A DNA stretch of 64,000 nucleotides. Source: Eubacteriales Family XIII. Incertae Sedis bacterium (GTDB lineage Bacteria > Bacillota > Clostridia > Peptostreptococcales > Anaerovoracaceae). The position numbers were made by a program, and so were the translations under genes. The notes under the pieces are model-generated. The model searched no databases and was not told where the DNA came from. It saw only the letters and a list, made by a program, of their open reading frames with translations. The stretch is from NCBI GenBank assembly GCA_031266025.1, contig JAISBV010000105.1, positions 5,986-69,985 of the forward strand. The letters run 5' to 3'. Shown piece after piece: positions 6,101 through 62,609 of the stretch (its first letter is position 1; every line of letters begins with the position of its first letter).

Positions 6101-6868
6101 GGTACGAATTGCGAAGCGGACTCAAAGAAGGCTTTTGAAAAGGCCGGCGCGTCTGTTTCTCTTCATATTTTGCGAAATCTGACGCCGGAGATACTCGAAG
6201 TCTCGATACGCGAGCTTGCGCGCGGCATAGGTGAAAGCCAGATCGTCATGATACCGGGCGGTTTCAGCGGCGGCGACGAACCGGACGGTTCGGCCAAATT
6301 TATAACGGCCGTTTTCCGCAATCCCGCAGTTAAAGAGGCCGTGGCGGAGCTGCTCGAGCGGCGCGGCGGCCTTATGCTCGGCATATGCAACGGATTTCAA
6401 GCCCTCGTGAAGCTTGGGCTTCTGCCATTCGGTGAGATACGGGACGGCGCGGACGACAGTCCGACGTTGACATACAACAGCATAGGCAGACACGTTTCGC
6501 GCATGGTGCGGACGCGCGTGGCTTCGACGCTCTCCCCGTGGCTTTTCGGAGCGGCGCCCGGAGACGTACACACACTGCCCGTTTCACACGGCGAAGGGCG
6601 TTTCACGGCGCCCGAATCATTGCTTCGCGACATGGCTGATAAAGGACAAATAGCGACTCAGTATGTGGATTTCGACGGGAAGCCCACGAGCGATTTTCGT
6701 TTCAATCCGAACAATTCCGTCATGGCCATAGAGGGCGTATGCTCGCCGGACGGCAGGATACTCGGCAAAATGGCGCATTCGGAACGAATAGGGCCGCATC
6801 TGTACAAAAATGTGCCCGGCGATTATGATCAGAAATTGTTTGTGTCGGGCGTAGCGTATTTTGAGTGA
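3107..6868 (+). CDS. purL: Phosphoribosylformylglycinamidine (FGAM) synthase, single-chain large form
   Basis: 1253 aa. AIR-synthase-like repeats (DHCRHTTF, NHPTEIEPFGGAATCLGGAIRD). C-terminal glutaminase with GICNGFQAL and HGEGRF. Confidence 0.95.
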   Translation: MVRRLYVEKKEGFDTEARSLRRALTENLHIAGIERLRVLNRYDIENIDDETYETAKRGVFSEPAADVVYEEDAPLGGAFVLRVEYLPGQYDQRADSAAHCIRLINAAASPTVRFARVIAIYGKLSHMETEAVRRFAVNPVDSREAASEKPDTLVLSLESPPPVAVVGGFVAFTADELEMFRQNGDYAMSAEDMLFTQRYFADTERRDPTVTELKVIDTYWSDHCRHTTFNASFANVGFDDGPFADLVRKAFNKYLNVRNEVYGEGSERPVSLMDIAVICAKYLKGRDLLPDLDESDEVNACSIRVKADNDGAEEDWLVMFKNETHNHPTEIEPFGGAATCLGGAIRDPLSGRAYVYQAMRVTGSGDPRADIGDTLPGKLPQLQITRDAAKGYSSYGNQIGLSTGLVAEMYDDGYIAKRLEIGAVIGAAPAAHVRRGVPAPGDVILLVGGRTGRDGCGGATGSSKEHTEESLSACGAEVQKGNPPAERDIQRLFRRKDAAHLIKRCNDFGAGGVSVAVGELAAGIDVDLDAVPKKYEGLDGTELAISESQERMAVLVTGADAARFIELSEEENLEAAVIARVTDTGRFRMYWRGDAILDLRRDFLDSDGVRRSVDVFVENRNAGAYFDADGGRRPADFLDDLNCCGQRGLTECFDSTIGAGTVLMPLGGLWQESPALGMAAKLPLTSGETLTTTLMTFGCDVKLSLASPFHGALYAVVDSVTKIVAMGGDRKGVRLSFQEYFEKLGQNPKRWGKPFSALLGALEAQLALEIPAIGGKDSMSGSFMNLDAPPTFVSFAVGVTSAERVLSPEFKKPGSNLVLVDAERDAEMMIDFAQYRRNMDVVTALTAEGRILSASVIGCGGIFITAVKMAAGNRIGARLLNVTDAELRLPRYGALILEIDEEFDADALLGGVLYRRIGVTTALAEISAAHTADADVPALRMGFGEIFSRWESPLADVFPMTTPEQPAESLKTLRFDKRSSVRPAVRAARPRVLIPVFPGTNCEADSKKAFEKAGASVSLHILRNLTPEILEVSIRELARGIGESQIVMIPGGFSGGDEPDGSAKFITAVFRNPAVKEAVAELLERRGGLMLGICNGFQALVKLGLLPFGEIRDGADDSPTLTYNSIGRHVSRMVRTRVASTLSPWLFGAAPGDVHTLPVSHGEGRFTAPESLLRDMADKGQIATQYVDFDGKPTSDFRFNPNNSVMAIEGVCSPDGRILGKMAHSERIGPHLYKNVPGDYDQKLFVSGVAYFE

Positions 6869-6888
6869 AGGTTTAGGAGATCATAGAT

Positions 6889-7377
6889 ATGAAAGCAGCC
6901 ATTGTGATGGGCAGCAAGTCCGACTACCCGGTAGCAGAACGGACGGAGCGCATATTGAAAACCTTCGGCGTCGAGTATGAGACGCGCGTGATATCGGCGC
7001 ACAGAACGCCCCGCGCGGCCGAATCCTTTGCCTCGGGCGCCGAAGGGAACGGCATAGAGGTCATTATAGCGGCTGCAGGCAAGGCGGCGCATCTGGGCGG
7101 CGTTATAGCCGCTTACACGCCCGTACCCGTAATAGGACTCCCGGTCAAATCATCTACGTTGGACGGGCTTGATTCGCTGCTTTCCATGGTGCAGATGCCG
7201 AAGGGCGTTCCGGTCGCCACTGTAGCGATAGACGGGGCGGAAAACGCGGGTCTGCTCGCCGTGCAGATACTGTCGGTTAAGTACGGGGAGCTCAGGACGC
7301 GCATGAAGGCGTACAAGGAGGATATGGCGAAGGATGTAGCCGATGCCGACGCGGCTTTTTCGCGAGGTGAGCATTGA
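6889..7377 (+). CDS. purE: 5-(carboxyamino)imidazole ribonucleotide mutase (class I-like PurE)
   Basis: MGSKSD, ISAHRTP and [10 protein letters not shown] motifs. 162 aa. Confidence 0.9.
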
Positions 7378-18829: not shown

Positions 18830-18906
18830 GGCGGCGTAGCTTAGTTGGTTAGAGCGTCCGGTTCATACCCGGAAGGTCGGTGGTTCGAATCCACCCGCCG
18901 CTACCA
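18830..18906 (+). tRNA. tRNA with CAT anticodon. Either elongator Met or lysidine-modified Ile2. Not initiator-like.
   Basis: Cloverleaf folded by hand. Acceptor GGCGGCG/CGCCGCT, anticodon loop TTCATAC, T-arm GGTGGTTCGAATCCACC, encoded CCA. Confidence 0.85.
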
Positions 18907-18994
18907 TTTTCTGCTTGCCTTGCAGCAAGCGAAATGTTGCGTCCGACGTCTCGGATTTCGGCGCGGTTCGGCATCGAATGCCGGCGTGTGTTGC

Positions 18995-19071
18995 GGTGGG
19001 TATCGTCAAGCGGTTAAGACCCAGGGTTGTGGTTCCTGTATGCGCGGGTTCGATTCCCGCTACCCACCCCA
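18995..19071 (+). tRNA. tRNA-His (GTG)
   Basis: Encoded G-1 opposite discriminator C. Acceptor GTGGGTA/TACCCAC, anticodon loop TTGTGGT, T-loop GGTTCGATTCC, CCA. Confidence 0.9.
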
Positions 19072-19088
19072 AATTCTGTCTTTGTTAT

Positions 19089-19163
19089 TGGGGTATCGCC
19101 AAGCGGTAAGGCAATGGATTCTGATTCCATCATGCGGAGGTTCGAATCCTCCTACCCTAGCCA
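19089..19163 (+). tRNA. tRNA-Gln (CTG)
   Basis: Acceptor TGGGGTA/TACCCTA, anticodon stem ATGGA/TCCAT with loop TTCTGAT, T-loop GGTTCGAATCC, CCA. Confidence 0.9.
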
Positions 19164-19230
19164 AGCCATGTGCGCGGATTGCGCCGGGAACGACGAAAAT
19201 CCGCGCGTATGAACAGTTTTATATGTACGC

Positions 19231-19305
<75 letters not shown>

Positions 19306-59488: not shown

Positions 59489-60232
59489 TTGAGAAGTTTC
59501 CTGCGAAATCCCTTTTCCCTGATACTGATCCTTATTATGGCCGTACGCGCCACGAGAGGCGGCAGCTTCAGCGACCCCGTCGCTTGGCTTTTCGATATGA
59601 TCATGCTCATTCCGGGGCTTGCCATAGGCATTTCCGTACATGAGTTTGCCCACGCGAAGGCCGCGGATATGCTCGGTGATCCTACGCCGCGCACGGAAGG
59701 GCGCGTTACGCTGAACCCTGTCAGGCATTTCGACGCCATAGGGTTTTTAGCTTTGCTGCTTATAGGCTTCGGCTGGGGCAAACCCGTCCGGATATCACCG
59801 TACAATTTCAAAAATATACGCAGGTCAAGCTTTATCGTGTCCATAGCCGGCGTCGTAATGAACTTCATAATCGCTTTCTTGTTTTTCGGAATATATTACG
59901 GTTTCAATATTTACGTGTTTCGCGGCGGCTTCATAAATTCGCAATTGTCCGCCGCGCTTACGCCCATCCTTATGAACATAATTTGGATCAATCTGGCGCT
60001 TATGATATTCAACCTGCTGCCCGTTCCTCCGCTTGACGGCTTCAACATCCTAACGGAGATATTCGACCTCAGGCGTTATCAATTTTGGAATACCCTGTAC
60101 AATTACGGCTTTGCTATACTGATTGTTCTGATTATGCTCGGCGTTACGGGCCGCGTTATGACGCCGGCGCTCTCGTTTGTCGTCAACTTTATGGATACGG
60201 TATGGAGGTTCCTGCTGCAGTCCTTGTTATAG
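59489..60232 (+). CDS. M50-family (site-2 protease-like) membrane metalloprotease
   Basis: TTG start 10 nt after GGAGG. HEFAHA zinc motif and NLLPVPPLDG. The last 30 codons lie in direct-repeat copy 1. Confidence 0.85.
   Translation: MRSFLRNPFSLILILIMAVRATRGGSFSDPVAWLFDMIMLIPGLAIGISVHEFAHAKAADMLGDPTPRTEGRVTLNPVRHFDAIGFLALLLIGFGWGKPVRISPYNFKNIRRSSFIVSIAGVVMNFIIAFLFFGIYYGFNIYVFRGGFINSQLSAALTPILMNIIWINLALMIFNLLPVPPLDGFNILTEIFDLRRYQFWNTLYNYGFAILIVLIMLGVTGRVMTPALSFVVNFMDTVWRFLLQSLL
60129..60217. repeat. 89-bp direct repeat, left copy (attL-like), inside the M50 gene 3' end
   Basis: Base-for-base identical to 62302-62390. Confidence 0.95.
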
Positions 60233-60419
60233 CGCCCCGTCCATTTTCATTATTGGGGCGATTTCAAAAAGTCAATGGTTTTGGGAAAATGCAAAACAAA
60301 TGTAAACAACCTCCGTTTTGAGCGGAGGTAAAGAAAAAAATCGAAAGTTTCGGATTGATTGAATTGCAATCTGTTCGGAGTTTTCGAGGAAATTCAATAC
60401 AATATTCGGAGGTATGTTT

Positions 60420-61556
60420 ATGATAAATTCAATCGCATTTAAGGATTTCCGTGGTCTTGACGATGTTACCCTTTCGCTGTCGCAAGTCACTATGCTTACA
60501 GGGACAAACGGCGTGGGAAAAACCTCGGTACTTGAAGGTCTTTACTGCCTTTTCTCAGAGACAAGATTGGATGTTTCCCCGCTGTCCCGTTACAACAAAT
60601 CAATAGGAATAATGATCAATCAGGCGGCAAATGTTCCGGTTGGTTTCGCAGCAAGACAGAATTACAACTATAGGTTGTTCTGGGACGAGTGTCCTTCATA
60701 CGAACAAGCAGAATGTTCGGTATCCGCCAAGACAAACAACGGGCTTGCTTGGTCGTGGAAGTATCGCAAAGCAAAACTATCAGATTTGAGTTCGCAGATT
60801 ACGATGAACAACCCTGTGTCAGTAGATTCATCTACAGAATTTGCTCTTTGGAACTGGCAGACTACCGGACGAGTAAATGATAAGAAATCGCATCAATTTT
60901 TAAATGTTAATGAAAAGTTTAGCCGTGCACAAATCCTTGCGCAGGACGGTGGGTTATATCTGTTACCACTCGAAGGCAGAGCAATGAGCATTTGTAAGTA
61001 TCTTGATTTTGCATCAATTCGCTTGCAGCCTCAGAAGCTTTCTTTCAACACATCAAAGCAATTAACTGAGGCGTTGAAAATTATCAATCCTCGCGTCACT
61101 GATGTTCGCCTAACTGACATTGAAAGCGGATTGTCTGTTGTGCTTGATGACAGCAATTCTGTTACTCTTGGCACGATTGGGAATGGCGCAGTTACTTGGG
61201 CAAGTGCCTTGATTGCAATCTTTGATGTGATTGAATCTATAAAGAATGAACCACAAATGGATACGCCCGTTCTTTTGCTGATTGATGAAATGGGAGCAGG
61301 AATACATTACAGCATAATGCTTGATGTATGGAAGTATATTAATGCTTTCGCAAAACAAAACCCTAAAGTGCAGTTTGTTTTTACTTCTCATAGCGATGAT
61401 TGTATAAGGGCATACTGCAAAGCATTCTCGGATAGCGATGTAGCAAGAATAGTCCGCTTACACCAAAGCGCAGTAGACCATAAGGTTATTCCAACAGACT
61501 ATTTGAAAAGTCAGTTCAGTAAAATTGCTGAAGGGGACTGGGAGGTGCGCGGATGA
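60420..61556 (+). CDS. ABC/SMC-like AAA ATPase (AAA_15/AAA_21 type) of a two-gene candidate defence module
   Basis: ATG 60420 lies 7 nt after GGAGG; ATG 60414 is too close. N-terminal IAFKDFRGL plus Walker A GTNGVGKTS, Walker B VLLLIDEMGAGIH, H-loop FTSHS. Confidence 0.8.
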   Translation: MINSIAFKDFRGLDDVTLSLSQVTMLTGTNGVGKTSVLEGLYCLFSETRLDVSPLSRYNKSIGIMINQAANVPVGFAARQNYNYRLFWDECPSYEQAECSVSAKTNNGLAWSWKYRKAKLSDLSSQITMNNPVSVDSSTEFALWNWQTTGRVNDKKSHQFLNVNEKFSRAQILAQDGGLYLLPLEGRAMSICKYLDFASIRLQPQKLSFNTSKQLTEALKIINPRVTDVRLTDIESGLSVVLDDSNSVTLGTIGNGAVTWASALIAIFDVIESIKNEPQMDTPVLLLIDEMGAGIHYSIMLDVWKYINAFAKQNPKVQFVFTSHSDDCIRAYCKAFSDSDVARIVRLHQSAVDHKVIPTDYLKSQFSKIAEGDWEVRG

Positions 61557-62260
61557 CTAATAGATATAAATGGCTACTTGTTGTTGAGGGTGAAACGGAT
61601 GTTACAACATATAAGGACTTGTTAAAACGGTATGGTGTACCATCGGGGGATATTGCTTTATTCTCGGCAAGTGGAAAAGGCAACGTATGTAATGCTGAAA
61701 ATTGGGCATTCGTTCAATTCGATGATACTGATTTGCTCAGTACACTCATTCAAGATTCTGGTCGCACAGATTTTTGTGGCGTGATTTTGCTTGTGGATAC
61801 TGACGCAGATGGTAGTGCTATTTTTGAAAATTATAAGCGAAATACAGACACACGCCTACACTATGTTACAACGAGTAAGCCGCAAAAAGAACAAAGAGGG
61901 GAATGTTGGTATTTAGATTCACTAAACGGCGTTCAGGAAATACCCGTTTTGGGTATTGCGGTTCCGATGAATGGATCAGGATGTTTGGAAACAGACTTAC
62001 TTAACTCATATGGATTTCCGGTAGAAGGTCAAGATGAATATGCACAGTTTGTTGATATAATACAGAAATCGAGCTCTAATTGGCAAATTCCGCTTAAAAA
62101 TGATGGCACGAATTGGTGGAAGGAAAATAGCAAGGCAAAACTGGACAAGTTTATTTACTCCGCATTATCTCATGGATTTATGGTATCTCGCAGAACGCCG
62201 CAATTACCCTGTGAACCCTCGGTTATCGGGTATATTAAATTGGCTATCGGAATCTCGTAA
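61553..62260 (+). CDS. Toprim-like (OLD/DUF4435/DUF4276-like) protein coupled to the ATPase
   Basis: ATGA overlap with the ATPase stop. LLVVEGETD (E12/E14/D16), SASGKGNV, LLVDTDADG (D82/D84/D86), GCLETDLL (E146). Confidence 0.6.
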   Translation: MTNRYKWLLVVEGETDVTTYKDLLKRYGVPSGDIALFSASGKGNVCNAENWAFVQFDDTDLLSTLIQDSGRTDFCGVILLVDTDADGSAIFENYKRNTDTRLHYVTTSKPQKEQRGECWYLDSLNGVQEIPVLGIAVPMNGSGCLETDLLNSYGFPVEGQDEYAQFVDIIQKSSSNWQIPLKNDGTNWWKENSKAKLDKFIYSALSHGFMVSRRTPQLPCEPSVIGYIKLAIGIS

Positions 62261-62301
62261 ATACTGATACGACAACTATCTGTGAAGGGTCTTGTGCCTC
62301 A

Positions 62302-62390
62302 TGATTATGCTCGGCGTTACGGGCCGCGTTATGACGCCGGCGCTCTCGTTTGTCGTCAACTTTATGGATACGGTATGGAGGTTCCTGCTG
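62302..62390. repeat. 89-bp direct repeat, right copy (attR-like). Orphan duplicate of the M50 gene 3' end.
   Basis: Identical to 60129-60217. In the M50 frame it continues NPLLS and stops at TAG 62406-62408. Confidence 0.95.
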
Positions 62391-62609
62391 AATCCGCTGC
62401 TTTCGTAGTTACGGTTACCGATACTTTTGAGCTGAGGATCTGTCGGAAAATAACCTATGCATTTGACTTGCCCTTTTGTTCCCCGGCCGTGTTGCCGGAA
62501 CCCTTGAATACTACAAGTATTCGCGGAACCCGGCGCCTTGCCGGGACACAAAATTGCTGCGCCAACTGTACACTTTATTTTCCGACAGACCCTGAGTTCC
62601 GGCGATAAA

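Follow-up and report, generated by a model that had tools for sequence, protein, structure and literature searches.

A compact two-gene module of an ABC ATPase and a putative, very divergent Toprim-like protein, horizontally acquired between the M50 protease and clpB genes of a termite-gut Family XIII bacterium

Two adjacent genes, here called A and B, lie in a 64,000-nucleotide stretch of DNA (the window; contig JAISBV010000105.1, assembly GCA_031266025.1) from a termite-gut Clostridiales Family XIII metagenome-assembled genome (MAG). An earlier interpretation made from the letters alone (the sequence-only reading) had proposed that they form a compact, split ATPase and Toprim defence module, the only cargo of a horizontally acquired cassette. 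Its description of the genes was borne out. Both open reading frames (ORFs) lie where it had placed them (Table 1; NCBI protein entries MDR1246993 and MDR1246994), the ATG of gene B overlaps the TGA of gene A by 4 nt (ATGA), every motif it had quoted is found in the sequence, and two perfect 89-bp direct repeats indeed enclose the A-B pair as their sole cargo. The gene A start is most likely the ATG at 60420, because the GGAGG at 60408-60412 is spaced 7 nt from it and just 1 nt from an alternative upstream ATG at 60414. GGGAGG precedes the ATG of gene B, and the two genes form a translationally coupled operon. A and B are real genes under purifying selection, with ratios of nonsynonymous to synonymous substitution (dN/dS) of 0.06 and 0.13, respectively, against the nearest relative. 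About 115 homologous protein clusters were found for gene A, and the adjacency of A and B recurs among relatives. The cassette has a GC content of 0.41, compared to 0.55 in its flanks. Logan contig L143, an independent assembly that covers the left junction and extends to 61850, starts precisely where the repeat does and matches 60129-61850 at 100% identity; therefore, the left junction is real and not an assembly artefact. The leader upstream of gene A contains a hairpin at 60309-60329. A sigma-70 promoter scan of the leader and cassette gave nothing convincing, leaving the pair with no clear promoter of its own, and Rfam and terminator scans of the cassette were uninformative.

Gene A is an ABC (ATP-binding cassette) ATPase of the OLD/GajA/PtuA/AbiLi class, in agreement with the sequence-only reading. 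The ABC-ATPase motif set is complete: IAFKDFRGL (residues 5-13) is followed by Walker A, GTNGVGKTS (28-36), a Q-loop candidate at Q171, a G-rich, signature-like stretch at 249-256, Walker B, LLLIDEMGAGIH (285-296), with its D289-E290 pair, and FTSHS (321-325), which holds the H-loop residue H324. Across an alignment of 51 homologues, G28, N30, G33, K34, Q171, G254, G256, D289, E290 and H324 are invariant. Pfam AAA_15 is matched with an E-value of 5.9e-16 (59.5 bits, cutoff 32.1), and AAA_21 is matched as well. Two PADLOC profiles are covered end to end, namely PDC-M38A (PDLC04611; 3.3e-28, model 1-383/383, 97 bits) and AbiLi (PDLC02336; 1.5e-26, model 1-340/340). The AriA, PtuA, Old and GajA models match in part only, with Old and GajA reaching just the N-terminus, and the PHROGs families that gene A matches are unnamed. 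The AlphaFold2 (AF2) model of gene A has a predicted local distance difference test score (pLDDT) of 86. When this model was searched against the PDB with Foldseek, the best match was GajA (1.1e-12), followed by retron Eco8, PtuA, Rad50 and OLD (TsOLD, 6P74), all with probability 1.0 and template modelling (TM) scores of ~0.4-0.5. From Walker A to the signature motif (~46-250) the model is rich in beta structure; residues 62-79 form a disordered loop, and the helices are all short. Gene A therefore has none of the coiled-coil or helical dimerisation inserts that OLD, GajA and AriA carry. Sequence variability is greatest in the region of Insert 1 (~46-200), which is likewise beta-rich.

Gene B is most likely a very divergent Toprim-like protein and a putative nuclease. 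The acidic layout of an OLD-type Toprim had been read from its motifs VVEGETD (10-16), SGKGNV (40-45), LLVDTDADG (79-87) and LETDLL (145-150), and E12, D82 and D84 had been singled out as the residues to mutate. All three are invariant among 27 homologues, as are G13, D16, E146 and T147, and a C-terminal helical region is also conserved (W177, W188, N192, D198, K199 and F200). In the AF2 model of gene B (pLDDT 89), beta1 (7-11) leads into E12 and is followed by a helix, beta2 (34-38), further helices and beta3 (76-83), which ends in D82-x-D84; after a beta-hairpin insert come beta4 (129-137) and a helix that starts at E146 (E146-T147-D148). We take this to be the element order of the Toprim fold, and in the model E12, D82, D84 and E146 stand at what would be Toprim catalytic positions.

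Profile searches gave sub-threshold matches to Toprim-related families. Across the 27 family members, Pfam DUF3226 is matched by 23 (best 2.4e-6), Toprim by six and OLD-like_TOPRIM by three. The corresponding PADLOC counts are 11 for PDC-M38B, ten for HEC-01B and two for AbiLii, and several members carry an independent label in IMG as RNase M5, a Toprim RNase. The gene B copy in the window reaches Toprim at 1.5e-3 (19.1 bits, below the cutoff of 23.1), OLD-like_TOPRIM at 0.011 (sub-threshold) and PDC-M38B at 8.6e-4 (residues 73-175 only, again sub-threshold); NCBIfam and PHROGs gave no match to it. The local matches of highest probability in BFVD, which are non-significant, were to the Toprim domains of DnaG and twinkle (0.72 and 0.54, over ~85 columns, with a root-mean-square deviation of ~3.8 A). 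The family is small, with 39 related clusters among 5.8 billion proteins, and an exhaustive HMMER search of 1.84 billion representatives with the B profile gave 48 matches that are apparently family members or short fragments thereof.

Several systems that pair an AAA15/21 ATPase with a Toprim domain have been named, among them OLD, Gabija, retron effectors, PARIS, AbiL and MADS3-4 (PMC11464382). The catalogued system nearest to the window pair appears to be PDC-M38, and after it AbiL, since gene A matches the models of both over their full length and gene B matches at sub-threshold level. Thus, the proposal of a candidate undescribed module stands in part. The architecture, a small ABC ATPase with a stand-alone Toprim-like partner, has an entry already as PDC-M38 and is not wholly undescribed; the new part is the gene B family, which no current model captures above threshold. 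PDC-M38 (ABC ATPase + DUF3226) is one of 145 untested PADLOC candidates that came from guilt-by-embedding (Payne et al., 10.1101/2024.01.29.577857). A full-text literature search for DUF3226 and PDC-M38 returned no main-text papers, and PDC-M38 was found only in a supplementary table.

The likeness to PDC-M38 lies in gene order, with the ATPase first and the Toprim-like partner second, and in size (~345-380 and ~205-260 amino acids). Genuine PDC-M38 pairs, at 27-36% identity, are also the next-nearest relatives of gene A: distant relatives are followed by a protein of ~210 amino acids with an LLVEGxDD motif, and the two such partners and one ATPase that were scanned proved to be PDC-M38 proper (A 7.3e-81, 271 bits; B 1.7e-35; Pfam DUF3226 4.8e-50). 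The window pair differs in degree, with 97 bits rather than 271 for gene A and, for gene B, an E-value of 8.6e-4 over part of the model rather than 1.7e-35. When the B family and the genuine DUF3226 partners were aligned with hhalign, VVEGxTD fell in register with LVEGxDD, VDTD with VDAN, and GCLETD with GELED. DUF3226 has D-A-N/D where the window protein has DxD, and the C-terminal half of gene B aligns with negligible confidence only. We suggest that the pair is a very divergent sister of PDC-M38.

Gene A is equally well covered by AbiLi, and AbiL is likewise a two-gene system of an ATPase and a Toprim-type partner (PMC11464382). However, the AbiLii/RloB partner has no match in the window gene B, and the two family members that touch AbiLii do so weakly (1.9e-5). 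HEC-01, an ABC ATPase and TOPRIM pair embedded in Hma systems, has the same architecture as the window pair; the ten family matches to HEC-01B are weak and cover only ~40 residues in the N-terminal E-motif region, and HEC-01A is missing from gene A's list of top matches. PARIS, to which the pair had been likened, is also a split ATPase/Toprim operon, and in its working model a sensor ATPase restrains and then releases a Toprim nuclease, with the AriB tRNase sequestered by AriA (PMC11464382). The likeness does not extend to membership, which we rejected: gene B has no DUF4435 match in Pfam (E<=1) and no AriB among its PADLOC matches, the AriA models align with no more of gene A than its N-terminal ~50 residues (best stretch 3-50) and a C-terminal piece, and gene A is without the helical and coiled-coil insertions of AriA. 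The proteins are also shorter, as had been claimed, at ~43 and ~27 kDa compared with ~55 kDa for AriA and ~35 kDa for AriB (PMC11464382). OLD, GajA and the retron Eco8 effector include the best structural matches of gene A and have in common with the pair both the ATPase class and the Toprim acidic motif; in these proteins, however, the two domains are fused in one chain and a helical dimerisation insert is present, whereas here they are split and gene A has no such insert. OLD and Gabija membership was rejected on the two separate ORFs and the lack of a helicase gene in the cassette, and neither a GajB helicase nor a reverse transcriptase gene lies nearby. Septu was rejected too, gene B having no PtuB HNH match and the similarity of gene A to PtuA being partial. 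The pair does not pass the tests for PARIS, Gabija, OLD and Septu, the PDC-M38 and AbiL models capture only half of it, and it appears to be a very divergent branch of the ATPase and Toprim class.

The pair was horizontally acquired and has spread across phyla. A gene A profile scan of species-representative genomes gave two groups of relatives. The close family (35-69% identity; loci L007-L017) includes Bacillota, Spirochaetia, Chitinispirillales, Holosporaceae, Deltaproteobacteria, Synergistaceae and Polyangiaceae, and all of its members that could be identified are MAGs with isolate names of termite-gut MAG series. The isolate prefixes Nt197 and Lab288 appear in PMC7024585; for the remaining isolates, the names suggest a termite origin. 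The distant group (23-36% identity; loci L018-L059) consists mostly of MAGs named for sponge symbionts. Both groups are host-associated, and gene flow within ecosystems is apparent. At twelve distinct close-family loci, gene A is intact and the sequence continues downstream of it. A full gene B follows in ten of these, a C-terminal remnant in one and no gene B in one, and the 4-nt overlap is seen in the called genes of several. The remnant, in an Oscillospiraceae MAG (L013:9105-9344), covers only positions 163-234 of the B profile and is a decaying copy of which the C-terminal third is left. The gene A homologue without a partner, in a Chitinispirillales MAG, sits within a sialic-acid/capsule-type polysaccharide cluster (NeuB, Capsule_synth, Stealth). 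In a Polyangiaceae MAG from termite gut (L142:4748-12534), gene A occurs as four tandem, diverged copies (54-64% identical, one frameshifted) and gene B as three paralogues (46-71% identical, one missing its N-terminus), as if the module had diversified locally.

The insertion site differs at each locus, and most loci have no recombinase, but possible delivery vehicles are present at some. The nearest relative (88% amino acid identity in A and 81% in B; L138:1535-14048 and L139) is carried on an element resembling an integrative and conjugative element (ICE), with TraG, PrgI, a MobA/MobL relaxase, a large serine recombinase and TnpW. Immediately upstream of the pair stand a helix-turn-helix regulator and a restriction-modification system of split, type IIG-like form (methyltransferase/helicase-nuclease), and an SDH-type (S49) protease follows downstream. 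Nucleotide homology between the window and this relative covers 60396-62238 only, that is, the two ORFs and the ribosome-binding site. L139 and a contig identical to the window copy of the pair both come from sequencing run SRR14710922, so two A-B variants, 83% identical in nucleotides, co-occur there. A tyrosine integrase lies 1 kb from a Spirochaetia copy. No flanking repeats of at least 12 bp were found at the other loci, and the 89-bp repeat is therefore specific to the window rather than a family-wide end structure.

In the window, the pair occupies the intergenic slot between the gene for a site-2 protease (M50) and clpB, and comparison with a syntenic relative (L144; M50 83% identical) defines its borders. 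The gene order in L144 is SHMT-DUF815-M50-[slot]-clpB, and its slot (6706-7345), which is equivalent to ~60244-62600 of the window, contains no A-B pair and instead a PIN toxin/PhdYeFM antitoxin pair on the opposite strand. The M50-clpB slot is therefore a small-cargo hotspot; its different occupant in L144 and the low GC of the cassette uphold the earlier claim of horizontal acquisition. By alignment with L144, the window is native through the M50 stop and 11 nt beyond, to ~60243. The non-syntenic segment then contains the leader, genes A and B, a partial second M50 3' end and ~190 bp more. The right border of the variable slot is marked by a palindrome (Table 1), because synteny with L144 resumes there. 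This palindrome, which we take to be an HrcA operator of the CIRCE type (controlling inverted repeat of chaperone expression), is found 75 nt upstream of where clpB starts (62711), is conserved in L144 and is present as a single copy in the window, which suggests that clpB is under HrcA control in this lineage.

Table 1. Features of the A-B cassette and its insertion site (window coordinates).
Feature	Coordinates	Strand	Basis or description
Site-2 protease gene (Peptidase_M50), resident	59489..60232	+	ORF; homologues carry PF02163
Left 89-bp repeat copy, 3' end of M50 gene	60129..60217	+	Repeat search; contig L143 starts here
AT-rich leader of inserted segment	60244..60419	+	Alignment with syntenic relative L144, hairpin, sequence
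Gene A	60420..61556	+	ORF; 378 amino acids; AAA_15/AAA_21-type ABC ATPase
Gene B	61553..62260	+	ORF; 235 amino acids; putative divergent Toprim-like protein, probably remote kin of DUF3226
Right 89-bp repeat copy, partial second M50 3' end, within non-syntenic segment	62302..62390	+	Repeat search, L144 alignment
Diverged M50-like tail (NPLLS-stop, 62391-62408) and ~190 bp without counterpart in L144	62391..62600	+	Right end of non-syntenic segment
Perfect CIRCE-type palindrome, TTAGCACTC-N9-GAGTGCTAA	62610..62636	+	Palindrome search and L144 alignment

The last 104 nt of the M50 gene, which the Joint Genome Institute (JGI) annotates in a shorter form of 231 amino acids, include the left repeat copy and encode a C-terminal tail ending in FLLQSLL. 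After the repeat, the left copy continues as QSLL-stop (60218-60232) and the right copy as NPLLS-stop, in different codons. The closest M50 homologues (83% and 78% identity) end in QSLL, as the left copy does, and more distant ones end in, for example, HPLLSI. The cassette has no recombinase. The presence of two M50-like tails after the 89-bp repeat suggests that the cassette arrived through recombination involving the 3' end of M50, for which either Campbell-type integration of a circle with M50 homology or the att-like core of a reduced integrative element would fit. No empty site was seen in a metagenome scan with the M50 protein, which gave relatives of at most 67% identity, and in the 83% relative L144 the slot is occupied. 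Extra copies of the 89-bp repeat were found neither in the window nor in viral contigs. Elsewhere in the window, four clustered genes for tRNAs (Met, His, Gln, Cys; + strand, 18830-19305) have no connection with the pair.

By analogy with PARIS and OLD, we suggest, with a probability of roughly 0.6, that the pair works as a sensor-effector of the abortive-infection or defence type, within the ABC-ATPase and Toprim class to which AbiL, HEC-01 and PDC-M38 also belong. Gene A, as a catalytically complete ATPase, would probably hold gene B inactive in a complex and would sense an infection cue through the variable Insert 1. ATP binding or hydrolysis would then release or activate gene B, which may act as a Mg2+-dependent Toprim-type nuclease through E12, D82, D84 and E146/D148. 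Cleavage of tRNA or DNA by gene B would cause growth arrest and thereby abort propagation of a phage or mobile element. We consider it possible, though decidedly tentative, that the pair represents a new defence family, with a B-type Toprim effector that differs from those of PARIS and OLD in substrate and assembly.

A number of observations weigh against a defence-type sensor-effector. Some of them concern gene B, whose assignment as a Toprim rests on profile matches that fall below threshold. In the window copy even DUF3226, the Pfam family most often matched by its relatives, is reached at 6.4e-5 and 23.3 bits, under the gathering cutoff of 27; the hhalign alignment with genuine DUF3226 partners keeps a collinear order across residues 2-220 (E 8.8e-4) and has a probability of just 23%, and the exhaustive HMMER search found no bridge from the B profile to DUF3226. 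The Toprim fold claimed for gene B agrees with the order of elements and the placement of acidic residues in the AF2 model, and it finds no significant match with Foldseek, either in the PDB (best E 0.07, flavodoxin/CheY-like folds) or in BFVD at E<=0.001 (best 0.02). Sequence searches of the PDB with the B profile and with a genuine DUF3226 profile gave no meaningful match to solved structures, so the fold is not anchored by a solved homologue. The PARIS sequestration model, moreover, may not transfer to the pair, because gene A is without the coiled-coil and dimerisation inserts of PARIS, OLD and Gabija.

Other contrary observations concern function and context. The nearest catalogued relative from which a defence role would be drawn, PDC-M38, is itself a candidate, and the single published test of HEC-01 showed no protection (10.1101/2024.01.29.577857). 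One Chitinispirillales lineage keeps a gene A homologue (L003/L007:8001-9137, 69% identity) with no gene B. Most loci are solitary, usually AT-rich two-gene islets amid ordinary housekeeping genes, with no defence neighbours. Homologues near defence genes are thus the minority: the defence association rests on the one lineage beside a restriction system and the one hotspot occupied elsewhere by a toxin-antitoxin pair.

The same context would suit a toxin-antitoxin-like addiction or selfish-stability module, in which gene B is a toxic nuclease, gene A its ATP-dependent neutraliser and phage defence at most a side effect. The compact, translationally coupled operon, the PIN/PhdYeFM pair in the same chromosomal slot of L144, the solitary islets and the carriage of the nearest relative on an ICE-like element are all in keeping with this idea. 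We nevertheless consider it unlikely. An ABC ATPase of 378 amino acids with a variable insert would be a costly and sensor-like antitoxin, the profiles closest to gene A are those of abortive-infection and defence ATPases (AbiLi, PDC-M38A, AriA, PtuA), and a lineage that keeps A without B is the opposite of what would be predicted if B were the selected part. The line between addiction and abortive infection is also partly semantic, and this explanation overlaps conceptually with a defence-type sensor-effector.

RecF (~360 amino acids) and RecR (~200 amino acids) are likewise an SMC-like ABC ATPase and a Toprim protein, and the sizes of A and B resemble theirs. An accessory role in DNA repair or recombination, acting on host or mobile-element DNA, would also fit the Rad50 heads among the Foldseek matches of gene A, as well as its best NCBIfam match, which is RecF. 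That similarity, however, like the other NCBIfam matches, is at the level of the P-loop, being confined to the N-terminal 45 residues (8.5e-9, 35 bits) and far under the cutoff of 172, and gene B has no RecR match in NCBIfam or Pfam. Patchy, AT-rich islets scattered across phyla are the mark of accessory cargo, not of housekeeping repair, and tandem arrays of diverged paralogues are atypical of repair genes, making this role very improbable. Least probable of all is an autonomous, homing-like selfish element with no dedicated recombinase, for which we know of no precedent and in which cutting would fall to the Toprim nuclease and recombinational capture to the Rad50/RecF-like ATPase: it would account for homology limited to the ORFs and ribosome-binding site, for integrase-less islets at unrelated sites in many phyla of one ecosystem and for the unusual duplication of the target gene's end in the window, but no other locus has such flanking repeats, the ICE with its serine recombinase and the tyrosine integrase offer delivery vehicles, and recombination through the M50 3' end explains the duplication equally well.

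A defence-type sensor-effector therefore remains the interpretation that we prefer. Modules in which an ABC ATPase is paired with a Toprim, such as OLD, Gabija, PARIS and AbiL, are a major theme of prokaryotic immunity, and for few of them is it known by what means the ATPase detects infection and which targets the nuclease has. The window pair is among the smallest versions, with an ATPase that has no oligomerisation insert and a partner that escapes all current models. Since none of them scores gene B above threshold, the family is probably overlooked by present defence-finding tools. Should the pair prove inactive in defence, as HEC-01 was in its only test, it would stay an uncharacterised accessory pair. 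Its identifiable members in termite-gut bacteria of many phyla, and a hotspot common to it and a toxin-antitoxin pair, provide a clean record of gene flow within one ecosystem for a putative immune module.

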